Assembly (NCBI GenBank): GCA_028286885.1
Contig: JAQBQS010000016.1
Span: 70,464 to 134,463, forward strand
Direction: 5' to 3'
DNA length: 64,000 bases
Origin: Patescibacteria group bacterium
Lineage (GTDB): Bacteria > Patescibacteriota > Minisyncoccia > Phycocordibacterales > UBA1006
Shown here: piece by piece, positions 3,571 through 58,981 of the stretch
How positions within the stretch are numbered: the stretch's first letter is position 1
Layout of the letters: every line of letters starts with the position of its first letter
The notes under the pieces: generated by a model
Told to the model about the DNA's origin: nothing
Seen by the model: the letters and a program-made list of their open reading frames with translations, nothing else
Database searches by the model: none
Program-made: the position numbers and the translations under genes

Positions 3571-4479
3571 CACCCGCGAGAACGCGTCGCGCACCTCTTC
3601 ATCGTAATTGCGTTCGTCATAGAGTTTTATCAAATACAGTCCGAGATCGAGCTTCAGTATCCGGAGCGTGGCTTTGAAGCTGCCGTCGAACAGTTCTTTG
3701 TTCAGGTAGCCTTCCATCAGCCATTTCGTTGGAAACTGTTCGCTGCACCAGTAATCCCAAATCGCGAAATCATGAACGGGACTGTGGCCCTTAACAGCGC
3801 CAAAATCGATGATTCCGGTAATTCGATCGTCGAGAAAAAAGAAATGCTTCGGCACGTAATCGCAATGGTTCAAAACGGGAACCGCTTCAATAGGCTGTTT
3901 CAGGAATTCTCCGATTGCCGAGAATGCATTCTCGATGACTTCCTTGTCAAAGCCGAATTTTCCCGCGACGGCCAAGACGGCTTCCCGGTTTTGAATTCTC
4001 GAATTTAAAAATTCCTTGAATGTTGCAAACGTCCCCGCTCCGTTCGCGTCGAGCCTTCCGAATCCTTTGACCGGAACAGAATGGATTTTCGAAAGAATTG
4101 CGCCCGCTTGGACAATCAGTCTTTTTAAGACAGTTTTGTCGAGCTTTCGCCAGTCGGTATTTCCGCGCTCGATGGAATCGCCGGGAATCTTGGATTGCGC
4201 CGAGATGGAAATGATTTTCCCTTCATGCTCGGCGTCTTGGATGAACAGAATGTCCGCGACGGGAACGCCAATGGTCCGGCACATGTTCATCGCCCATTCC
4301 TCCTTGCGGAATTCCTCGGGGCCTTTCCGTGAAATGCGAATGACGACCGGGTGTCCGCTTGAAAGCCGCGCATCGTAAACCTCGTTGTCCTCGCCCGCGA
4401 AGATTCTCGTTTTCTCGAAAATCTCGGCGTGCAGATTTTTTTCAACGGCTCTTGAAATGATTTCGTCGGGCGTTTTCAT
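3550..4479 (-). CDS. phosphotransferase-family kinase (APH/choline-kinase-like)
   Basis: HCDYVPKHFFF (catalytic loop) and IIDFG (DFG motif). Start chosen at MKTPDEII. Confidence 0.65.
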   Translation of the reverse strand: MKTPDEIISRAVEKNLHAEIFEKTRIFAGEDNEVYDARLSSGHPVVIRISRKGPEEFRKEEWAMNMCRTIGVPVADILFIQDAEHEGKIISISAQSKIPGDSIERGNTDWRKLDKTVLKRLIVQAGAILSKIHSVPVKGFGRLDANGAGTFATFKEFLNSRIQNREAVLAVAGKFGFDKEVIENAFSAIGEFLKQPIEAVPVLNHCDYVPKHFFFLDDRITGIIDFGAVKGHSPVHDFAIWDYWCSEQFPTKWLMEGYLNKELFDGSFKATLRILKLDLGLYLIKLYDERNYDEEVRDAFSRVQKILAD

Positions 4480-4590
4480 GCTCGGATTATACGCGCAATC
4501 GCGCAAAAGCGGAAAGCGTCCGCACAACTTTGCATTCTTGGCAAAAAGGCTATACTGGACGTGTTATTATTTCCTAATCCACATTATTTT

Positions 4591-42856: not shown

Positions 42857-43285
42857 ATGAAAAAGACATCGACGCTTTCGTTTCTGATTCTTTTCTTCTT
42901 TACATTCGCCTTTGCCGAGCGTCCGGACACCGCGTCCGATTCACATACGCCGTGCATCGCGCAGTCTCCCGGCTTCGGATCGGTCATCAACCGCATCGGA
43001 TACGCCGGCGAGATGATTTCGGAGGTTTATTTCGAGGTGGCGCCGACACCGGCCGACGTCCGCAAAGACGGCATCGGATACTGGGTCCGGCATCCTAATT
43101 ACAAGCCGGACGGCGCGCCTACCGTTTTGGATTTTGTCTCCAACGACAACAGGGCCGTAAGAAAGGCGATCAAGGAAAAGAAACCGCTTGTCATCATGGC
43201 GACGCTTTCCAAAAATGAACATGACGAATGGGCGGTGACGACGCGGGAGGAGGCGCTCATCCACATTCCTCCGCTGAAAAAATAG
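42857..43285 (+). CDS. secreted hypothetical protein (142 aa)
   Basis: Signal peptide MKKTSTLSFLILFFFTFAFA. Confidence 0.45.
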   Translation: MKKTSTLSFLILFFFTFAFAERPDTASDSHTPCIAQSPGFGSVINRIGYAGEMISEVYFEVAPTPADVRKDGIGYWVRHPNYKPDGAPTVLDFVSNDNRAVRKAIKEKKPLVIMATLSKNEHDEWAVTTREEALIHIPPLKK

Positions 43286-43330
43286 GTTTCGGGTTTCCGG
43301 GGAGGAGTCTGCTCCCCAAGGTTGTCAGGT

Positions 43331-43364
43331 AGCCGCACGCCACTCGGTCGTGCGGTTTTTTTTG
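43331..43364 (+). terminator. rho-independent terminator
   Basis: ccgcacg-N9-cgtgcgg followed by TTTTTTTT. Confidence 0.7.
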
Positions 43365-43394
43365 TTTTCCAAGAATACAAGGTATACTTGCACC

Positions 43395-44156
43395 ATGAAA
43401 AAACTCATTGTGGGCAATTGGAAAATGAATCCGACGCGCGGGACTGATGCGCGCAAGCTGTTCAAATCCGTAAATGCGACCGCTTCAAAACTGAAAAATA
43501 CCGAAACGGTCGTTTGTCCGCCGCTTGTTTATTTGGAGTCGCTCGGCGAACTGGTGACGACGCGGTCGTGCGTGCTCGGCTCGCAAGACGCATTTTGGGA
43601 ACATGCGGGAGCCTACACGGGACAGGTTTCCGCCGATATGATTTTCGGCACGAAGGCGCGTTATGTCATCGTGGGACATTCGGAACGCCGTGCAATGGGC
43701 GAGACGGATGAGATGGTCAGCAAGAAAATAAAAAGCATTTTGCAATTTCCGCTGATTCCGATCGTATGCGTGGGCGAGACGAAGCGCGATGATGATCATG
43801 CGTATGTGAAGCTGGTAAAAAATCAGATCAAAAGCGCGCTTGCCGATTTAACCCAAGAGGAAATCGCGCGGATCGTGATCGCCTATGAACCCGTATGGGC
43901 TATCGGCAAGAATGCCAAGAAGGCATGCGAGCCGTCGGACTGCCGTGAAATGGCGCATGTCATTAAAACAGTATTGGCTGACATTTCAAATGCCGAAATC
44001 GCAAAGGCGATTCCGATACTTTATGGAGGATCGGCGAATGCCGAGAATGCGGAACCTTATTTGAAAGACGGGCTTGTTGACGGATTGTTGGTTGGCCGAG
44101 CAAGTCTGGATGCGAAGGAGTTTATCAAGATTTTAAAAATCGCCGAGAAAAATTGA
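43395..44156 (+). CDS. tpiA: triosephosphate isomerase
   Basis: GNWKMN, VGHSERR and AYEPVWAIG motifs. Confidence 0.9.
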   Translation: MKKLIVGNWKMNPTRGTDARKLFKSVNATASKLKNTETVVCPPLVYLESLGELVTTRSCVLGSQDAFWEHAGAYTGQVSADMIFGTKARYVIVGHSERRAMGETDEMVSKKIKSILQFPLIPIVCVGETKRDDDHAYVKLVKNQIKSALADLTQEEIARIVIAYEPVWAIGKNAKKACEPSDCREMAHVIKTVLADISNAEIAKAIPILYGGSANAENAEPYLKDGLVDGLLVGRASLDAKEFIKILKIAEKN

Positions 44157-44270
44157 TCGTCCTCCCGGGCAAGCGACGGCCTCGAGCGCGACCCGGGATC
44201 CAGGTTCTGCGGGGCCTGGATCCCGGATATGCGCCCGTAGCAAACGGCGCATTCCGGGAAGACGACTACT
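44157..44270 (+). other. GC-rich multi-hairpin intergenic element between tpiA and pgk (possible structured RNA, cis-regulatory or processing site)
   Basis: 12 bp perfect stem cccgggatccagg/cctggatcccgg; hairpin tgcgcc-N10-ggcgca; outer pairing cgtcctcccgg/ccgggaagacg. The core GACCCGGGATCCAGG also occurs at 58946-58960. Confidence 0.4.
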
Positions 44271-44277
44271 TAAACAT

Positions 44278-45405
44278 ATGAACTATCTCTCACAGCAAAA
44301 TCCGGCAGACTTTCACGGCAAGCGTGTTATCTTGCGTTTGGACTTGAACGTACCATTAAATGATGCAGGTCATGTTGATTCAACTGATGCTGATCGCATT
44401 ATGAAATCCTTGCCGACGCTCAAATGGCTCGCTGATGCAGGAGCAAAGACAATCGTCATCTCGCATATCGGACGGGATCCGAAAGAAACGCTCCGTCCTG
44501 TTGCGCGATATATGGAGTCAGTGACGACGATCGGATTTGATCCTGAATTATCCGGCGAGCGGTTGAATGAGATGATTGCGAATATGGGAAACGGGCACGC
44601 GTTGCTTCTTGAAAATCTGCGCAGCAATTCTGGAGAGGAATCAAACGACGAGGCATTTGCCAAATCGATTGCGGACCTCGGCGATATCTACGTGAATGAT
44701 GCGTTCGCCGTTTCTCATCGCGCGCATGCCTCGGTTGTCGGCATTCCGAAACTGCTTCCTCATTTTGCAGGTTTGCAAATGGAGCAGGAAATAGAGCATC
44801 TCTCGAAATCATTTTCTCCGAGTTCTCCGAGCATTCTTGTCTTGGGCGGCGCGAAATTCGAGACGAAACTTCCTGTCATTCAAAAATTCCTCGGCATTGT
44901 AGACCATATTGTAATCGGCGGAGCGCTTGCGAATAATTTTTACAAGGCGATGGGCTACGATGTCGGTTCGTCATTGATTGACGAGACGGCAAACGTCAGT
45001 GGTCTTCTTGGCAATCCCAAGATTATTATTCCTGAAACTGTCATCGTCGAAAACGAGAAAGGCAAAGAAGAGAAGAAGGTGAGCGACGTTGCGCGCGGCG
45101 ACAAGATCGTCGACATTGCGCCAAGCGGACTCGATCTACATGCAGATCTTTTCAAGAATGCAGCGTTCGTTTTGTGGAATGGCCCGATGGGCAACTACGA
45201 AAACGGATTCGTCGACGGGAGCAAGAAAATCGTCGAGCTGATCGCGGATTCGCAGGCGGAATCGATTGTCGGCGGAGGCGATTCGGTGGCGCTTGTCGAG
45301 GAACTCGACATGTCCGAGAAGTTCGGATTCCTGTCTACGGGCGGGGGTGCGATGCTCGAATACTTGGCGCAGGGAACGCTGCCGGGAATAGAGGCACTCA
45401 GGTAG
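44278..45405 (+). CDS. pgk: phosphoglycerate kinase
   Basis: RLDLNVP..., GAKTIVISHIGRD; N- and C-terminal PGK domains. Confidence 0.9.
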   Translation: MNYLSQQNPADFHGKRVILRLDLNVPLNDAGHVDSTDADRIMKSLPTLKWLADAGAKTIVISHIGRDPKETLRPVARYMESVTTIGFDPELSGERLNEMIANMGNGHALLLENLRSNSGEESNDEAFAKSIADLGDIYVNDAFAVSHRAHASVVGIPKLLPHFAGLQMEQEIEHLSKSFSPSSPSILVLGGAKFETKLPVIQKFLGIVDHIVIGGALANNFYKAMGYDVGSSLIDETANVSGLLGNPKIIIPETVIVENEKGKEEKKVSDVARGDKIVDIAPSGLDLHADLFKNAAFVLWNGPMGNYENGFVDGSKKIVELIADSQAESIVGGGDSVALVEELDMSEKFGFLSTGGGAMLEYLAQGTLPGIEALR

Positions 45406-45768
45406 TTGTCATTCCGGACTTCGAGCCGGAATCCATTTTGATTTCTATGAAGGATTATTATGTTTATATTCTAGCGAGTCAAAAGAACGGGACTCTTTAT
45501 ATCGGAGTAACAGGAAATCTTCAACGAAGAATCCATGAACACAAGCATAAAGTTCACGAAGGCTTTACTGCTAAATATAATGTCTCAAACCTTGTTTATT
45601 TTGAAAGAACCCAAGACGTGCACAGTGCACTTGCTAGGGAAACTCGGCTTAAAAACTGGAAAAGGGAATGGAAAATAGATCTTATTGAAAAAGAAAATCC
45701 TGATGGGCACGAGCTTTCAGCTGATCTTTTCTAAAATCATGGATTCCGGGTCAAGCCCGGAATGACAA
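45406..45768 (+). mobile_element. 363 bp mini-cassette: GIY-YIG nuclease ORF bounded by 29/28 bp imperfect terminal inverted repeats
   Basis: Left end ttgtcattccggacttcgagccggaatcc. The reverse complement of the right end is ttgtcattccgggcttgacccggaatcc; the outer 12 and 9 nt are identical. Confidence 0.4.
45447..45734 (+). CDS. GIY-YIG nuclease-family protein (YhbQ/COG2827-like, 95 aa)
   Basis: YVYILASQKNGTLYIGVTGNLQRRIHEH...RETRLKNWKREWKIDLI. Confidence 0.75.
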   Translation: MKDYYVYILASQKNGTLYIGVTGNLQRRIHEHKHKVHEGFTAKYNVSNLVYFERTQDVHSALARETRLKNWKREWKIDLIEKENPDGHELSADLF

Positions 45769-45771
45769 TAT

Positions 45772-45796
45772 AAAAAACACCTTCCGGTGTTTTTTA
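45772..45796. terminator. bidirectional terminator
   Basis: aaaacacc-ttcc-ggtgtttttt with A and T runs on both sides. Confidence 0.6.
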
Positions 45797-45798
45797 TA

Positions 45799-46473
45799 TT
45801 AGAGAGAAATCGCTGCTGTCTGCATCTGCGCCTTGGTCGCGGAATTCATTGAGAGGGAATTAGCGCCGTCGGCATCCATGGTTGTGTAGCCGACTCGATC
45901 AACGCGGAGCTTGTACGATCCGTTCGTTGTCGGATGAACGGCAAGCGAGATTTGGAACGTTGCCGCCGTGTAAGCCGGGATCACGAATCGGTTCGATGCG
46001 TTGAATCCTGCGCCTGAAACGGCTGTGAGGAGGCAGCTTTGCTTGCCGAATCCGTCAGTGGTTGACGCTCCGTCCTTGAGAAGCGAGAACGATACTCCGT
46101 TCTCCGTCAGGTCGCTGTGGCATGACTGCGAGATGTACAAGTCATGATCCGCCGCGTTAACTTTGAACTGAAGCGTAAAGATTCCGTGTTTCGTTGATGA
46201 TGAAGCATCTGCCGACATATTGGCTGTCTGCGAAACAAAGTGAATTTGTGGTTCAACCGATGTTGAGACAGTTCCGGCATTAGACGCTGATGCGGTTGCA
46301 GAAGTCTGGTCGGCTGAATCTGCGGCTGTCTGTGTTGATGTGTCAGACGGAAGGACCAAGGAATCATCCGTGTCAGGTCGTTTTACTGCGACAACGATAA
46401 TAATAATGATGGCGATTACTACGATCGCACCTGCCAGGTACGCGCCGTATTTCTTCATTGATTCGTTATTCAT
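45799..46473 (-). CDS. membrane-anchored Ser/Thr-rich hypothetical protein (224 aa)
   Basis: N-terminal TM AYLAGAIVVIAIIIIIVVAV. Confidence 0.45.
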   Translation of the reverse strand: MNNESMKKYGAYLAGAIVVIAIIIIIVVAVKRPDTDDSLVLPSDTSTQTAADSADQTSATASASNAGTVSTSVEPQIHFVSQTANMSADASSSTKHGIFTLQFKVNAADHDLYISQSCHSDLTENGVSFSLLKDGASTTDGFGKQSCLLTAVSGAGFNASNRFVIPAYTAATFQISLAVHPTTNGSYKLRVDRVGYTTMDADGANSLSMNSATKAQMQTAAISL

Positions 46474-46500
46474 AGAATTTTACTATACCACTTGTAATTA

Positions 46501-46896
46501 TTAATTCATCTTTACTTTTTCTAAAATATCTGTCAATTCTTGATCGGTCGGCCTTTCAGATTCAGGCTTTGGAACGAAGTCCTGAAAGCCGGTATAAATA
46601 GGAATGAGGTGGATATGCGTGTGCGCAACCCCGAAACCTTCCACATGCACCCCAATCTTTGGGGATGCAAAGACTCTTTTGAGGTGAGAAGATATTTTCT
46701 TAACTGTATTCCAAACTGCCTCGTAGTCTTGCGGAGGCATATCTTGAAACTCATCAGTATGATTTTTAGGTATTACCATGAGATGACCTTTTTGGACGGG
46801 ATTGCGGTCTAGAAATGCAATTGTTAAATCGTCTTCGTAAACGATATGTGCGGGGATTTCCTTGGAAATAATTTTGCAAAAAATACAGTCGTTCAT
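46501..46896 (-). CDS. HIT-family (histidine triad) protein
   Basis: CIFCKII...; AHTHIHLIP matches the HxHxHxx motif. Start at the internal MNDCIFCK. Confidence 0.75.
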   Translation of the reverse strand: MNDCIFCKIISKEIPAHIVYEDDLTIAFLDRNPVQKGHLMVIPKNHTDEFQDMPPQDYEAVWNTVKKISSHLKRVFASPKIGVHVEGFGVAHTHIHLIPIYTGFQDFVPKPESERPTDQELTDILEKVKMN

Positions 46897-46995
46897 ATGC
46901 GCCAAGTATACAGATCGAAATGGTTGTTGCAAGAAAAAAAGCCCTTGCTTGCGCAAGGACCTTACTTATAACCGAACCTAATTTTTTTTTAGAGA

Positions 46996-47469
46996 TCACG
47001 CATGGACAAGCGGCTTCAGTTCTTTGCGCATCTTCATGATATAGTCGATCAAGGTATTTTTGTCATTGGACGGGTGAGTCGACAGCTGCTTGAGGTAAGA
47101 TACGTCCTTCTTCTCGAGAAACTTTTTGCTCGAGTACATGGTTCTCGCGATCGCCCGGATGGCGCCGTAGTGATTTTCGGTTCCCGCCCTTGTGCCGTTG
47201 AAATACTCGACGAGCCCTGCCACCTTTTCGTGCATGGAATTAAAATGGAGTATTTTCTGGAGGACGGGATCCTGGGCCGTGTTCGAAGGCCGCTTGAAGG
47301 CGCTCTCGATCGTTTCGGATGGCAGATGGAGATCGTGCTCCATATCCTTGCCAAGTTCCATAGCCTTCCATTGTTTGGCGAGGCTTGCGCTCTGGGAGGG
47401 TTTTGCCTGATCGGATTGGATGGCAGATGCAATGAGGATCATGAGGTGCGGTCTGAAGTTCTTCTTCAT
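46996..47469 (-). CDS. secreted hypothetical protein (157 aa)
   Basis: Signal peptide MKKNFRPHLMILIASAIQS. Confidence 0.4.
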   Translation of the reverse strand: MKKNFRPHLMILIASAIQSDQAKPSQSASLAKQWKAMELGKDMEHDLHLPSETIESAFKRPSNTAQDPVLQKILHFNSMHEKVAGLVEYFNGTRAGTENHYGAIRAIARTMYSSKKFLEKKDVSYLKQLSTHPSNDKNTLIDYIMKMRKELKPLVHA

Positions 47470-51499: not shown

Positions 51500-52957
51500 A
51501 TGGAAGTTCTCGAAATTGCACTCGTCTCATTTCTCTTCGGTGTTGCAGGCTGGTTTCTCGGTATATGGTTTTTAATTGCGTGCGCGATTGGTTTGCTTGT
51601 CATCTTGGCATTTTTCAAACCTGCAAGAAAGCAAATTATTCTTTTCTTGCTCATAGCGACAGCATCCGCATCCGGAGGATTCTTCTGGTCGGGGCATTTT
51701 GTTTTCTCTCATGCTTCGCATATTCCTGAATCTGACTTCAACAAGAAGGAAACATTCCAAGCCGTCATATCCGACGATCCTGATCGCGGCATCGAGGGAA
51801 CGGCAATTGTTGCCGAATTAAAATCAGGAGATCATGTCCGCATCGGCCTGCCCGCCGGAACGGATGCTCTGTACGGCGACCGCATTGAATTCTCTGGAAC
51901 GCTGAAGCATCCGGAATCCTTCACAACCGACACCGGCCGCGAGTTCGATTATCCGACATACTTGCTTGTTCATGGAATTACGGCAACAACGAATATAAAA
52001 TCAATTACGATCGTCAGCCATCACAACAAGCCACTCTTCGTCGAATCGCTGTTTTCGATCAAAAAATATTTCGTGGATGCAATCAAGAAGCTCTTTCCAA
52101 GTCCGGAGTCAGGATTGTTCGCGGGAATCGTGATTGGCGAAAAGTCACTCCTTCCAAAATACAATCTGCAAGAATTTCAAATCGCGGGGCTGACTCACAT
52201 GATCGTGCTGTCGGGCTACAACATTACGATCGTCGCGCTGTTTGTTATGACGGCGCTTGCATGGCTCGGGGTCGGATACCGCGCGCGTCGCGTCGGCGCC
52301 ATCTTGGCCATTCCTGTTTTCATCGTGATGACGGGCATGGGCGCGAGCTCGGTGCGCGCGGGAATTATGGCTATTATTGTATTCGCCTTGCAGCTTGATA
52401 CGAGGCCTGCAAATTCGCTCCGCGTAATCTTGCTGACGCTCGCTACAATGGTATTTGTAAATCCTTATGCGCTCTTATATGACCCGTCGCTTCATTTGTC
52501 GTTTCTTGCGTTTATAGGTTTGGTGTATGTAACGCCGATTACGCAGCACTATTTCGAGAAATGGAATGTTCAAGAATACGGCGGCATGCGTGATTTGTTG
52601 ATAGAAACAATGTCAGTGCAATTTTTTGTGTTGCCTTATATTATCTGGATGAGCGGACGCGTTTCGGTGCTGACACTTGTTTCAAATTTGATTACTGTGC
52701 CGCTGACGCCGCTCGTCATGGGAACGGGATTTGCCGTCACGATCATCGGCATGATCGCAGGACCTCTCGGCGCCATTTTTGCAAAGCCTGTTTCGTGGGT
52801 GATGACATACATGCTGTCGGTCGCGCACATCGTCGCAAGCATGCATTTCGCAACGTTCGTCATTCCGCCGTTTGGAGGGTGGGTGATGGCCGGAATCTAT
52901 TTGACCATCTGCATAATCGTCTACATCTATTCAAGAATTCCAACCTCTCACGGTTGA
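51500..52957 (+). CDS. comEC: ComEC/Rec2-family DNA internalisation channel (core only, no metallo-beta-lactamase domain)
   Basis: N-terminal DUF4131-like segment; competence domain GLTHMIVLSGYNI...GMGASSVRAGIMAII; polytopic. Confidence 0.7.
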   Translation: MEVLEIALVSFLFGVAGWFLGIWFLIACAIGLLVILAFFKPARKQIILFLLIATASASGGFFWSGHFVFSHASHIPESDFNKKETFQAVISDDPDRGIEGTAIVAELKSGDHVRIGLPAGTDALYGDRIEFSGTLKHPESFTTDTGREFDYPTYLLVHGITATTNIKSITIVSHHNKPLFVESLFSIKKYFVDAIKKLFPSPESGLFAGIVIGEKSLLPKYNLQEFQIAGLTHMIVLSGYNITIVALFVMTALAWLGVGYRARRVGAILAIPVFIVMTGMGASSVRAGIMAIIVFALQLDTRPANSLRVILLTLATMVFVNPYALLYDPSLHLSFLAFIGLVYVTPITQHYFEKWNVQEYGGMRDLLIETMSVQFFVLPYIIWMSGRVSVLTLVSNLITVPLTPLVMGTGFAVTIIGMIAGPLGAIFAKPVSWVMTYMLSVAHIVASMHFATFVIPPFGGWVMAGIYLTICIIVYIYSRIPTSHG

Positions 52958-55116: not shown

Positions 55117-55614
55117 ATGTTAGACATAAAAAACGAATTCACTGAATTAATTTCAGGAAGCGAGGAAATAATCATCGACGAGTGTAGGGGTTCTGATATA
55201 CTCGAGAATACGGAAGGCCTTTTTCACATCAACGAAGAAAGCTTCCGCAAGTTCAAACTGAAGCTTGCAGACGAAATCAGTCCGAACATTCCTACGGATA
55301 AAATATCTGCCGAAGTTTATCAAAGAAAAAAAGACGCAACGCTTCTGCAAATGTTCGGCTCGTTCGGTACGGATATCAGCACTCTTTGCATGAGCTGGAA
55401 ACAGATAAAAATATTCTGCAAGAAGCATCCAATGTGGCTCTGCGGCGGGGGATTCGGAACTCTTTTTATAACCAAAATCAATGGCGAGTATGCGGTTGCA
55501 TCGCTCAACCTCGTGCCTTCCATAGGGCTGCGCATGTCCGCTTTCCCGCTAGAAGAAAAGTATGTTTTTTCCTGGGGATTCCAGCATTTGGTTGTTCCTA
55601 GGTTGTCTTCTTGA
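55117..55614 (+). CDS. paralog 1 of a novel ~160 aa family (165 aa)
   Basis: Shares EEIIIDEC.GS at the N-terminus, LC..Q.QI..FCEK.P in the middle, LFLFK, and a C-terminal PRLSS/PKLSS with the next three genes. Confidence 0.7.
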   Translation: MLDIKNEFTELISGSEEIIIDECRGSDILENTEGLFHINEESFRKFKLKLADEISPNIPTDKISAEVYQRKKDATLLQMFGSFGTDISTLCMSWKQIKIFCKKHPMWLCGGGFGTLFITKINGEYAVASLNLVPSIGLRMSAFPLEEKYVFSWGFQHLVVPRLSS

Positions 55615-55716: not shown

Positions 55717-56199
55717 ATGACAGCTGCTGAAAATTTATTTGAACTCATTTCTCTGGATAAGGAGATCGTCATCGATGCATGCGACGGTTCGCAAACCTTG
55801 GCAGACGCCACAACCTTATTCGTCGCAACCGATTCGGTCGTCAAAAAATGCAGGTTCAACAAGATCAGGCCAACCGGACCGACTTCCGTTGACATTTACA
55901 AAATACCTGAGAAGGGTTCGCTTGCGGGCGCTTCGATCATAGATTATTTTGAAAATGATCTGGACAAATTGTGTCTGACCCAAAACCAGATAAGGAGCTT
56001 CTGTGAGAAGAGCGCCGCGAAGTGGATAAAGGGAGATAAATTCGAGTTTTTCTTCCTGTTTAAGATAGGCGGGCGAATACACGCCGCCCATGTTGCCACG
56101 TATACTTCTGGCCTAAGGGTCTTTGCCTACAGCATGGATTTCGTAATTGCCTGGTTCGACCGTGGCAACCGGGGTTTGGTAGTTCCCAAACTACTTTAA
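55717..56199 (+). CDS. paralog 2 (160 aa)
   Basis: EIVIDACDGSQ...LCLTQNQIRSFCEK...FFFLFK...VVPKLL. Confidence 0.7.
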   Translation: MTAAENLFELISLDKEIVIDACDGSQTLADATTLFVATDSVVKKCRFNKIRPTGPTSVDIYKIPEKGSLAGASIIDYFENDLDKLCLTQNQIRSFCEKSAAKWIKGDKFEFFFLFKIGGRIHAAHVATYTSGLRVFAYSMDFVIAWFDRGNRGLVVPKLL

Positions 56200-56309: not shown

Positions 56310-56807
56310 ATGACAGACATAATAATCCGAGAGTCCATGGTACGTCTTTCAGAAGACAAGAAACTTATCATCGACGCATGTAGCGGAGAAAGGACTTTTG
56401 CAAGTTCGCCTACTCTTTTCGGGTCACATGGAGCGGGATGGCCATTTAATGAAATGGATTATCCAAGCGCTCCTACTCCTGAAATCGAAATCGAGCGATA
56501 TCAGATGATAAAGCCAGATTGTGTAACGGATATATTCAAATCTTTTAGTTCCGATCTGGAAAAGTTATGCCTCAATCAGGATCAAATAATCACATTCTGC
56601 GAAAAGCATCCCGAAGAAATTTCCAGAGAGTCTTCAATGACGACATTTTTCCTCTTTAAAAGAAAAGAGAACGTCATGGTCGGGGTAATGTTTGGGGATG
56701 GAGCCATGGATAACCGCCATTATGTTGTTGAGGGCCAGGATCTGCCTACTGGGGTACATAGTATTAAATATTTCCGCTCAATACTTATCCCTAAACTGTC
56801 TTCTTGA
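56310..56807 (+). CDS. paralog 3 (165 aa)
   Basis: KLIIDACSGER...LCLNQDQIITFCEKHP...FFLFK...IPKLSS. Confidence 0.7.
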   Translation: MTDIIIRESMVRLSEDKKLIIDACSGERTFASSPTLFGSHGAGWPFNEMDYPSAPTPEIEIERYQMIKPDCVTDIFKSFSSDLEKLCLNQDQIITFCEKHPEEISRESSMTTFFLFKRKENVMVGVMFGDGAMDNRHYVVEGQDLPTGVHSIKYFRSILIPKLSS

Positions 56808-56917: not shown

Positions 56918-57415
56918 ATGGCAGCTGCAACAAACGAATTCCTGAAACTCATTTCAGGTGAACAAGAAATTATCATCGACGCATGTGATGGCACGAGAAG
57001 CATTGCGGACTCGGAAGAAATATTTACCAGGTTCCTAGATCCAAGTTTCAAAGATGCTTTTTTTGACAAAACCGGCAAAGAAACAAAAGAAATTTCATTG
57101 GAAATCAGCGAAATAACTAAAATGTCGACCTTACAGAAGATATTCCATTCGTTGGAGATTGATCCAGAAAACTTACGTCTTACTCAGCATCAGATAATCA
57201 ATTTTTGTGAGAAGTATCCTGATAAGTTTTTAATCAATGGAAAACCTACATTATTTCTTTTCAAAATGGGCAGTTCCGTGTGTGTAGCTAGTATCGCCCG
57301 GGATTCTTGTGGATTAAGGATTTATAGAAATGACCTTTATGGCGGCAATGTCGGTCCTGGACGTTATAATGTGATGCCTTCTTGGCGAATCGCAATTCCC
57401 AAACTGTCTTCTTGA
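56918..57415 (+). CDS. paralog 4 (165 aa)
   Basis: EIIIDACDGTR...LRLTQHQIINFCEKYP...LFLFK...IPKLSS. Confidence 0.7.
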   Translation: MAAATNEFLKLISGEQEIIIDACDGTRSIADSEEIFTRFLDPSFKDAFFDKTGKETKEISLEISEITKMSTLQKIFHSLEIDPENLRLTQHQIINFCEKYPDKFLINGKPTLFLFKMGSSVCVASIARDSCGLRIYRNDLYGGNVGPGRYNVMPSWRIAIPKLSS

Positions 57416-57576: not shown

Positions 57577-57694
57577 ATGCGGGTTATTATTAAGTTAATC
57601 CGGGACACAGGTTATCGCCGGAACGATGCAACACTTGGCTGTTTTTTCAGCACGAGACGTCGTTTCGAGTAGTCTGTTCCCATCAATCAAACGT

Positions 57695-58897
57695 ATGGCA
57701 GCAGCTGAATTTGACCGATCAAAGCCACACGTAAACGTAGGAACCATTGGTCACGTCGACCATGGCAAGACTACGCTTACGGCGGCTATTTTGAGCGTCC
57801 TTAACCGAGAAGGCAACGGATATGGAGCCGTTACCAAGGGAATCAACGACATCGACAAGGCTCCCGAGGAAAAGGCACGAGGAATTACGATTTCATTGTC
57901 TCACTCTGAGTACTGGACACCGACGCGACACTACGCTCACATCGACGCCCCAGGACATGCCGACTACATCAAGAACATGATTACAGGTGCCGCTCAGATG
58001 GACGGTGCCGTACTCGTAGTAGCAGCAACAGACGGAGCGATGCCACAGACACGAGAGCACATTTTGCTCGCGCGACAGGTAAACGTTCCAAAGATGATTG
58101 TCTTCTTGAACAAGTGCGACATGGTTGATGACCCAGAAATGCTCGATCTCGTTGAGATGGAAATGCGAGAAATCTTGACCAAGAATGGTTACGACGGAGA
58201 CGCAACACCAATCATCCGAGGTTCAGGACTTAAGGCTTTGGAATCAGCTGACAACAGCGATCCTTACGCTCAGAAAGTCATGGAACTCGTTCGAGCATTG
58301 GACGAGTACATCCCAGTTCCAGAGCGAGAGCTCGACAAGCCATTCTTGATGCCAGTAGAGGACGTATTCTCGATCGAAGGACGAGGAACCGTCGTAACTG
58401 GAAAAATCGAGCAGGGAATCATCAAGGTAGGAGAGGAAATCGAAATTGTCGGTATCCACGACACCGTGAAGACAACGGTTACAGGAGTTGAAATGTTCAA
58501 CAAGTCGCTCCAGCAGGGACAGGCCGGTGACAACGCCGGAATTCTCCTCCGAGGAATCAAGAAGGAAGACGTTACCCGAGGGCAGGTTCTCTGCAAACCG
58601 GGATCAGTCAAGCCTCACACAGAGTTCGAGTGCGAGACCTACATCCTCAAGAAGGAGGAAGGAGGACGACACACGCCGTTCATCCAGGGTTACAAGCCTC
58701 AGTTCTACGTTCGAACAACGGACGTAACGGGAGAAGTAACGCTTCCAGAAGGAACAGCTATGGTTATGCCAGGCGACACGGTAACATTCAAGGTTAAACT
58801 CATGGCTCCAGTAGCTCTCGAGAACAACCAGCGATTCACCGTCCGAGAGGGAGGAAAGACAGTCGGTGCAGGTGTTGTTACCAAGATCATTGCTTAG
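57695..58897 (+). CDS. tuf: elongation factor Tu
   Basis: [32 protein letters not shown]...[22 protein letters not shown]...NKCD...; 400 aa. Confidence 0.93.
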
Positions 58898-58905
58898 TGA
58901 ATTGT

Positions 58906-58960
58906 CCGTCTTCCCGGGCTTGATTGTCTCAATCACCTACGCGGTGACCCGGGATCCAGG
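58906..58960 (+). other. second copy of the CGTCyTCCCGGGC...GACCCGGGATCCAGG element (tuf-rpsJ intergenic)
   Basis: ccgtcttcccgggc + hairpin tgattg-tctc-caatca + cctacgcggtGACCCGGGATCCAGG. Confidence 0.4.
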
Positions 58961-58981
58961 ACCAAACACTCTCCATTAATT

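Follow-up and report, generated by a model that had tools for sequence, protein, structure and literature searches.

Layout of the pgk locus

The DNA studied here, called the window throughout, is a stretch of 64,000 nucleotides (nt) from a Patescibacteria group bacterium of the lineage UBA1006 (assembly GCA_028286885.1, contig JAQBQS010000016.1, positions 70,464 to 134,463 of the forward strand). The subject of this study is a unit of 363 bp in the window, which lies between the stop codon of pgk and a terminator-like hairpin and consists of a small GIY-YIG gene, here called ssn, framed by two inverted hairpin repeats. The repeats are named below after the Ssn-related motif (SRM), the recognition hairpin of a nuclease system described in Neisseria. 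The main features of the locus are as follows, with positions counted from the first letter of the window and protein lengths given in amino acids (aa).

44278..45405, + strand: pgk, the host gene with the unit at its 3' end (Pfam PGK, E=1e-106; stop codon TAG at 45403-45405)
45406..45436, + strand: left SRM hairpin, TTGTCATTCCGGACTTCGAGCCGGAATCCAT (TTGTCAT-TCCGG...CCGGA-ATCCAT), stem 45411-45417 / 45426-45432, directly 3' of the pgk stop
45447..45734, + strand: ssn gene, encoding a predicted 95-aa single-domain GIY-YIG nuclease (Pfam PF01541, E=1e-15)
45739..45768, - strand: right SRM hairpin, ATGGATTCCGGGTCAAGCCCGGAATGACAA (reverse complement TTGTCATTCCGGGCTTGACCCGGAATCCAT), stem 45743-45750 / 45756-45763
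45767..45800, no strand assigned: native bidirectional terminator-like hairpin with a perfect 15-bp stem (folding free energy, dG, -12.7; z -8.9)

The right repeat begins 4 nt past the ssn stop and is an imperfect reverse complement of the left repeat. A repeat search finds inverted arms of 16 nt at 94% (I1) and of 14 nt at 93% (I3) between them, and each arm folds as a hairpin of 7-8 bp with a dG of -6.4 and -8.9 kcal/mol and a z-score of -2.6 and -3.6, respectively. The pattern ATTCCGG-N(3-14)-CCGGAAT occurs exactly twice in the 64 kb and not once in 100 shuffles; the repeat pair flanking ssn is more than chance. A preliminary description, made from the letters alone, had proposed a GIY-YIG open reading frame (ORF) between terminal inverted repeats that are each a hairpin, and the ORF, the repeat search, the folding and the covariance model R1 described below all agree with it. 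The repeats lie where that description had placed them, except that they extend about 2 nt further inward (CCAT/ATGG), and the terminator that it had noted after the unit is indeed present as the perfect 15-bp hairpin at 45767-45800.

In the ORF list, ssn is the sole frame that fits in the unit, and it has a single copy in the window. There is no promoter-like site upstream of ssn, and the distance of only 10 nt from the left hairpin to the ATG leaves no room for a promoter of its own, so that ssn is probably read through from pgk. The hairpin at 45767-45800 looks like a terminator shared by pgk and the convergent gene of 224 aa.

The encoded protein and the Ssn family

The Pfam GIY-YIG domain spans residues 4-77 of the 95-aa protein, which has no second domain. 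An AlphaFold2 model (pLDDT 90) shows one compact domain with the GIY-YIG fold, whose top structural matches are the UPF0213 protein BH0048 and the nuclease domains of Slx1. The UPF0213 structures in the PDB are only marginal matches by sequence (1zg2, E=0.051; 1ywl, E=0.14), the same search of PDB sequences found no Ssn structure, and no NCBIfam family scores above its cutoff. The protein had been called YhbQ-like in the preliminary description. This holds for its fold and superfamily but not for its family, since UPF0213 reaches E=0.05-0.14 and a Neisseria gene E=9e-33.

The window motif resembles the Neisseria dRS3 repeat, and the pairing of dRS3 with GIY-YIG leads to the study in which the Ssn family was described. 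According to that study (Chenal et al., Nat Commun 2025, PMC11893778), SsnA of N. meningitidis (NMV_0044/NMB0047) is a 94-aa single-domain GIY-YIG protein (CDD cd10448, GIY-YIG_unchar_3) that binds the hairpin repeat NTS, CGTCATTCCCGCGMAVGCGGGAATCYRG, solely as single-stranded DNA (ssDNA) and on one strand only; duplex DNA, RNA and the complementary strand are not acted on. The enzyme cuts 5' of the 28-nt NTS, at a distance of 3 nt from its first base, cutting depends most on the nucleotides just 5' of the palindrome and binding most on the C just 3' of it, and mutation has established that Y6, Y17 and E64 are essential (PMC11893778). Strand-specific ssDNA binding and cleavage have been demonstrated for four homologues, at least one nearby SRM has been found for 71% of homologues and an SRM on both sides for 42% (PMC11893778). 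In Neisseria, the enzyme reduces transformation by NTS-bearing DNA, and NTS repeats cluster around unrelated genes too; the authors liken NTS-ssnA-NTS to an insertion sequence (IS) and to repetitive extragenic palindromic (REP) sequences with their REP-associated tyrosine transposase (RAYT), leaving mobility as a hypothesis (PMC11893778). We found no later or other literature on the Ssn family, and nothing relevant on GIY-YIG in combination with repetitive extragenic palindromic, COG2827, YhbQ or UPF0213.

The Neisseria gene compared above is a 94-aa ORF of N. gonorrhoeae that lies among NTS repeats, and we took it as the SsnA orthologue and as a proxy for SsnA of N. meningitidis. The 95-aa protein is 50% identical to it over 90 aa by BLASTP (E=9e-33) and matches the N. 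gonorrhoeae chromosome records by tblastn at E=2e-22, the published criterion being E < 1e-10 (PMC11893778). The Neisseria residues Y6, Y17 and E64 correspond to Y7, Y18 and E65 of the 95-aa protein, and these three are invariant in an alignment of 31 homologues. A Wolbachia homologue is 62% identical to the protein. More than 4,000 relatives of the protein are found in the databases; the nearest beside its own record, that of a Patescibacteria metagenome-assembled genome, are at most 72% identical (best matches 66-72%). In several relatives the C-terminal end is a translated hairpin, with peptides such as DPGSSPG. Judged by its sequence, the 95-aa protein is very probably a member of the Ssn family of the GIY-YIG superfamily.

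The hairpin-gene-hairpin pattern across phyla

A scan of one genome per species yielded 80 loci (53-66% identity) with 85 homologous genes, from groups of the candidate phyla radiation (CPR), Ignavibacteria, Omnitrophota, Flavobacteriia, Planctomycetes, Legionella, Wolbachia, Bradyrhizobium and others. Nearly everywhere, the gene is flanked upstream by TGTCAT-TCC[stem]-loop-[stem]GGA-ATC[C/T]A and downstream by its reverse complement. When a hairpin was defined as GTC directly followed by a stem of at least 6 bp, 63 of the 85 genes had such a hairpin upstream in the forward orientation, 59 of the 85 had one downstream in the inverted orientation, and 49 of the 85 had one on both sides. In an alignment of 59 of these hairpins the stems vary from locus to locus (CCCGCG, CCTGC, CCGCAC, CCCAGA, CTGAAC and others), whereas GTCAT and the C after the stem are fixed. 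The percentage of pairing in this alignment is circular, pairing being the rule by which the hairpins were selected, but this does not apply to the constancy of the flanks next to stems that vary.

A covariance model, R1, was built from these 59 hairpins, all of which come from other loci and none from the window. It matches the left arm at 45402-45439 on the + strand (E=1.6e-7) and the right arm at 45736-45772 on the - strand (E=1.5e-10), so that the two arms stand in the expected opposite orientations, and each window hairpin has both GTCAT and the 3' C. The consensus of R1, TTGTCATTCCCGCG...CGGGAATCCAG, is the published NTS. A Yonathbacteria genome (L043; the L numbers are our handles for the loci and contigs compared) has, upstream of its homologue, a hairpin almost identical to the right window hairpin. 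A scan of positions 43000-47000 against Rfam at E values up to 10 gave chance-level matches only, with no family on the hairpins.

The 45 units with both ends are 349-518 nt long. A T precedes GTCAT in 80 of their 90 ends, and nothing is conserved further out. Other genomes carry several copies of ssn, with two or three in L035, L045 and L046. In L045, from Bdellovibrionales, two paralogous units lie 2.4 kb apart, with a similarity that begins a few nt ahead of GTCAT and ends about 10 nt past ATGAC; outside these limits they are unrelated, their hairpins are 100% identical and their ORFs have noticeably diverged.

Two smaller observations concern the right ends of such units. Short tandem partial copies of the terminal half-site (e.g. 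...GTCGGGAATGACAAA...GCGGAATGACA...) follow the complete right hairpin in L001, L015, L020, L046, L048, L060 and L076. In L007, L025, L028, L039-L042, L046 and L065, the ssn ORF stops in TGACA.

The unit as an insertion after pgk

The closest relatives of the window PGK are 85%, 83%, 81% and 79% identical to it, and the pgk orthologues, at 79-85% identity, are located in syntenic contigs. The gene order tpiA, pgk, a gene of 220/224 aa (-) and HIT (-) is preserved in the contigs of the 85% and 83% relatives, with recJ also present in L082, and the neighbouring products in the syntenic relatives are 80% (TPI), 50-53% (224-aa protein) and 43-50% (HIT) identical to those of the window. These two syntenic contigs hold no GIY-YIG gene. 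In L082, L083 and L084, which have the same synteny, the pgk stop is directly followed by the terminator, that is, the site is empty; in L082 and L083 the homologous hairpin abuts or overlaps the TAA stop. The junction reads aaatTAAAAAACACCgcaaGGTGTTTTTTaatatta in L083, gaaaTAAAAAAATCCCgcaaGGGATTTTTTTattagagagaaat in L082 and caggTAG / TTGTCATT...AATGACAA / TATAAAAAACACCttccGGTGTTTTTTATattagagagaaat in the window, where the slashes mark the limits of the extra DNA. Compared with the empty sites, both limits of the extra DNA, at about 45405 and 45766/7, lie no more than about 2 nt from the outer ends of the repeats. The relatives with 83-85% identical PGK, which run from the stop into the terminator, thus support the insertion at the pgk 3' end that had been proposed in the preliminary description.

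Base composition differs as well. The GC content of the unit is 38.8%, within the lowest 5% of windows of the same size, and the GC content at third codon positions is 29.5% in ssn versus 56-57% in pgk and tpiA. This composition agrees with an insertion of foreign origin. The degree of divergence differs likewise, the nearest Ssn homologue being at most 72% identical versus 85% for the nearest PGK. As the preliminary description had also remarked, no target-site duplication is found in the window, where no duplication longer than 2 nt exists at the junctions; among the 45 two-ended units, the repeats found in the flanks equal those of a re-paired control. By comparison with these relatives, the pgk stop and the native terminator were separated in this Patescibacteria lineage by the insertion of the whole unit, and a gain is favoured because one gain is more parsimonious than several precise losses.

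At the same pgk-terminator junction, the four contigs of the relatives with 79% identical PGK (L085-L088, at about 4130-4590) have an AT-rich ORF of 63-132 aa, which is 121-132 aa long in three of the four. This ORF has no Pfam match and no SRM hairpins. The pgk-terminator junction seems permissive for small insertions. In an independent assembly of the read set SRR13312974, the Logan contigs L081 (ending at 45767) and L122 (ending at 45739) both break in the right hairpin, and their overlap is exactly the 29 nt of this hairpin. This hints at a branch in the assembly graph, either because the hairpin recurs in another context or because it is itself nearly palindromic.

Hairpins without an ssn gene

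Apart from the two arms of the unit, R1 finds weaker matches in the window at 44153-44206 (+), 44213-44269 (-), 58902-58962 (+) and 52853-52903 (+). The first three correspond to the following features.

44158..44206, + strand: degenerate SRM-like hairpin CGTCCTCCCGGG...CCCGGGATCCAGG, left half of a doublet (R1 E=0.004)
44213..44275, - strand: degenerate SRM-like hairpin (reverse complement GTCGTCTTCCCGGA...TCCGGGATCCAGG), right half of the doublet (R1 E=0.085; fold z -4.1)
58902..58962, + strand: orphan SRM-like hairpin CCGTCTTCCCGGG...CCCGGGATCCAGG (R1 E=0.019; fold z -3.7)

Alignment and folding show that these three hairpins share the variant CGTC[C/T]TCCCGG...CCGGGATCCAGG and long structured loops. 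The first two fill the spacer between tpiA and pgk as an inverted doublet without a gene. This spacer (44157-44277) is 121 nt long, has a GC content of 64.5% and folds into three hairpins with -38 kcal/mol (z -5). In five relatives it measures at most 8 nt (in L088 the genes overlap; in L082 it reads aaaaatTAAacatATG), and the doublet in the window is for this reason read as a second, separate insertion. The orphan hairpin lies in a spacer of 84 nt after an ORF at 57626-58897. From their translations, we take this ORF to be tuf and the next one to be rpsJ. The fourth match, at 52853-52903 (E=0.0013; CGTCATTCCGCC...GGCCGGAATCTA), lies within an ORF of 485 aa at 51500-52957, near its 3' end, and is probably a chance match rather than an SRM embedded in coding sequence.

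Such hairpins also occur around the homologues. The 80 loci contain 278 SRM-like hairpins versus 42 in shuffles, and they contain 34 gene-less convergent doublets, several of which are repeated in near-identical form within one locus (L028, L008, L071, L019 and L067).

Interpretation of the unit

We consider it very probable that the 363-bp unit is an Ssn module, in which the gene of a site-specific ssDNA endonuclease lies between two inverted copies of its own recognition hairpin. By homology with the Neisseria system, the SRM would fold into a hairpin whenever it is single-stranded, for example in incoming transforming DNA or where replication or repair exposes it, and Ssn would bind this hairpin, read the palindrome together with the 5' GTC and the C 3' of the stem, and cut the same strand a few nt 5'. 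As read from the sequence, the cleavable strand should be the top one at the left SRM and the bottom one at the right SRM. If the cut position of the N. meningitidis enzyme is transferred to the window, with nicks about 3 nt 5' of [T/C]GTCAT, the span between the predicted nicks is the following.

45404..45770, no strand assigned: span between the predicted Ssn nicks (top nick 45403/45404, bottom nick 45770/45771)

The predicted nicks would thus fall just outside the unit on both sides, within 1-4 nt of the insertion boundaries. The comparison with relatives indicates that the unit was inserted between the pgk stop and the terminator, and the gene-less SRM doublet separately between tpiA and pgk. 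The module may be a unit of the REP/RAYT type, a nuclease plus its hairpins, whose nuclease would act in trans on SRM-bearing ssDNA and may also help to spread the hairpins and the unit itself. Rejoining would need host functions, because a GIY-YIG hydrolase cannot ligate. Candidate roles in the cell are the restriction of incoming single strands that bear an SRM, as in Neisseria, and the processing of the cell's own hairpins. That the unit moves is supported, at the level of comparative data, by the empty sites, the paralogous units and the gene-less doublets.

Several points weigh against parts of this interpretation. The direction of the change, a gain and not a loss, rests on parsimony over few metagenomic relatives. 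The literal published SRM pattern, HGTCWYN(0-2)YYVSBRHN(0-5)WNVSBRGN(0-2)RNCYNB, has 0 matches in the window, although the canonical NTS matches it. It misses both window hairpins because their stems (ATTCCGG(G)) are 1-2 pairs shorter, and we regard this failure as a sensitivity limit of a hand-made heuristic that assumes a longer stem, rather than as evidence against homology. The 64 kb contain only one ssn copy and two canonical SRMs, with no sign of an expansion of hairpins. In addition, W87 and D89, which are kept in at least 90% of the 31 homologues, are G and E in the window copy; its C-terminal tail may be impaired, and the copy could be weakened or inactive. The nuclease activity of the window protein is assigned by homology, and the transfer of the exact N. 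meningitidis cut position to the window is an extrapolation.

Two readings take the gene and its hairpins for something else altogether, and we reject both. One would make the hairpins purely RNA-level structures (terminator, attenuator or mRNA stabiliser) of an ordinary YhbQ-type repair nuclease gene. T-rich tracts lie inward of both hairpins and a simple terminator scan detects both, but GTCAT and ATC[C/T]A, the flanks that are not palindromic, stay the same from phylum to phylum in a strict orientation, the homologues bind the motif as ssDNA and not as RNA (PMC11893778), a strong separate terminator follows the unit, the gene is absent from syntenic relatives, and similarity to UPF0213/YhbQ is marginal and a match in Rfam lacking; this reading is very improbable. 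We give still less credence to a free-standing GIY-YIG homing endonuclease that targets the pgk-terminator junction. It would account for a presence/absence polymorphism at a conserved gene end and draws on a weak match to a group I intron endonuclease model, yet this match (TIGR01453) scores 22 against a cutoff of 56 and covers the GIY motif only (residues 6-37), the 95-aa protein is without a DNA-binding domain, its homologues sit in unrelated genomic contexts, and the recognition site lies within the element itself instead of in the empty allele.

The other two readings concern how the unit arrived. It is quite possible, if not what we would expect, that the unit is passive cargo brought in by ordinary horizontal transfer and recombination, with Ssn being a cellular tool for SRM-bearing ssDNA or a repair nuclease, and with hairpins that serve autoregulation or accumulate around any gene. 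The sole demonstrated role, the modulation of natural transformation in Neisseria, and the clustering of NTS repeats around unrelated Neisseria genes (PMC11893778) speak for this reading, as does the lack of both a target-site duplication and a transposase. Passive arrival leaves unexplained, however, why the insertion ends a few nt from the outer ends of the hairpins, why a tight inverted pair accompanies 49 of 85 homologues across phyla in units of 349-518 nt, and why gene-less doublets multiply. The other reading is an autonomous transposon, whose GIY-YIG protein would serve as its own 'transposase' and excise or copy the unit and the doublets at the hairpin ends, much as IS200/IS605 TnpA or a RAYT does. 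Such a transposon would fit the empty site at the outer repeat ends in relatives, the second, gene-less insertion in the same window, the 34 convergent doublets in 80 loci with several near-identical multi-copy ones, the paralogous units bounded close to their hairpins, the predicted nicks just outside both ends and the missing target-site duplication, which single-strand transposons do not make either; the same hypothesis has been raised before (PMC11893778). Yet members of the family are seldom found in phages and true plasmids. There is no homologue in the phage genomes of INPHARED, only 32 loci in IMG/VR have homologues, and of the 33 records with homologues in the plasmid collection two from Neisseria and several others among the 15 matches listed are megabase-sized (the 2.17-Mb N. 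gonorrhoeae records NZ_CP119140.1, our L089, and NZ_CP119142.1, which are labelled plasmids in PLSDB, are evidently chromosomes). Enzymes of the GIY-YIG superfamily act by hydrolysis, without a covalent intermediate, so that strand transfer is beyond them. With ends that would be cleavable on opposite strands, moreover, the whole unit could not be moved by 'peel and paste' as in IS200/IS605. No transposition of the family is reported in the literature that we found, and the window has one copy of the gene. We therefore hold an autonomous transposon to be doubtful.

As we read it, the Ssn module adds one more instance to a system already described and does not represent a novel type of element. 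The preliminary description had favoured a selfish cassette of the IS type or of the type of miniature inverted-repeat transposable elements (MITEs). What stands of this is a coherent inserted module instead of a stand-alone housekeeping gene, with gene-less doublets resembling MITEs in the window and elsewhere; on the other hand, the architecture SRM-ssnA-SRM, or NTS-ssnA-NTS, had already been published (PMC11893778), the chemistry is that of no known transposase, a target-site duplication is missing, and kinship with IS or MITE elements is a hypothesis. Only tentatively would we go further and propose a new class of element, in which a hydrolytic GIY-YIG ssDNA nuclease would nick outside the hairpins and the host would complete the move without target-site duplication, the unit and the doublet being two independent and datable insertions of this class in a CPR bacterium.

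The empty site in relatives shows that genomes acquire the unit as one block with the hairpins as its limits, as happened with the doublet 1.2 kb away. This makes the locus a clean comparative test case for the mobility of Ssn units, which has only been speculated on before (PMC11893778). It also indicates that the published SRM search pattern overlooks variants with short stems, and it places the Ssn system in a Patescibacteria genome. Patescibacteria probably rely on DNA uptake, and an ssDNA nuclease could matter there.

Comparison with known systems

Among the systems compared, the unit is closest to the Ssn family, with which it shares a single-domain GIY-YIG protein of about 95 aa (50% identity to the N. 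gonorrhoeae proxy) with the catalytic Tyr/Tyr/Glu kept, inverted hairpins with a 5' GTCAT, an ATTCC...GGAAT palindrome and a C after it, and the NTS-ssnA-NTS architecture. It differs in its host, a Patescibacteria (CPR) genome, the word Patescibacteria being absent from the main text of the published study, and in its shorter stems, the lack of SRM expansion in the window and the substitution of two near-invariant C-terminal residues. For the window, the present comparison documents an empty site in close relatives, which that study does not show (PMC11893778).

The REP system of bacterial interspersed mosaic elements (BIMEs) and RAYT, and likewise REPINs, also have a nuclease gene between two inverted short hairpins that are recognised as ssDNA, and they resemble the Ssn units in a conserved short motif 5' of the hairpin and in gene-less inverted doublets dispersed between genes. 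A RAYT, however, has the HUH/Y1 transposase fold, unlike a GIY-YIG hydrolase, which is without covalent intermediate or rejoining chemistry, and no sequence relationship exists between the two. With IS200/IS605 the unit has in common subterminal hairpins recognised in ssDNA, cleavage a few nt away and the lack of a target-site duplication. In IS200/IS605, in contrast, both ends are recognised on the same strand, whereas the inverted ends of the Ssn unit would be cleavable on opposite strands; the catalytic family is another one, and transposition of Ssn units is a hypothesis. As to IS and MITE elements in general, the unit has terminal inverted repeats and a presence/absence polymorphism with an intact empty site, but it has neither a target-site duplication nor a recombinase of the DDE, HUH, serine or tyrosine type. 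Some transposon classes make no target-site duplication. UPF0213/YhbQ proteins (1zg2, 1ywl) and the Slx1 domain have the same GIY-YIG (URI) fold, and Slx1 is also structure-specific; UPF0213 differs from Ssn by lacking the C-terminal motif K-x-W-x-R-x-W-K-x-x-L-I-E-x-x-N-P, and its sequence similarity is marginal.

Elsewhere in the window, the ORF list shows an array resembling tandem paralogues, which consists of four ORFs of 160-165 aa on the same strand, at 55117-55614, 55717-56199, 56310-56807 and 56918-57415.

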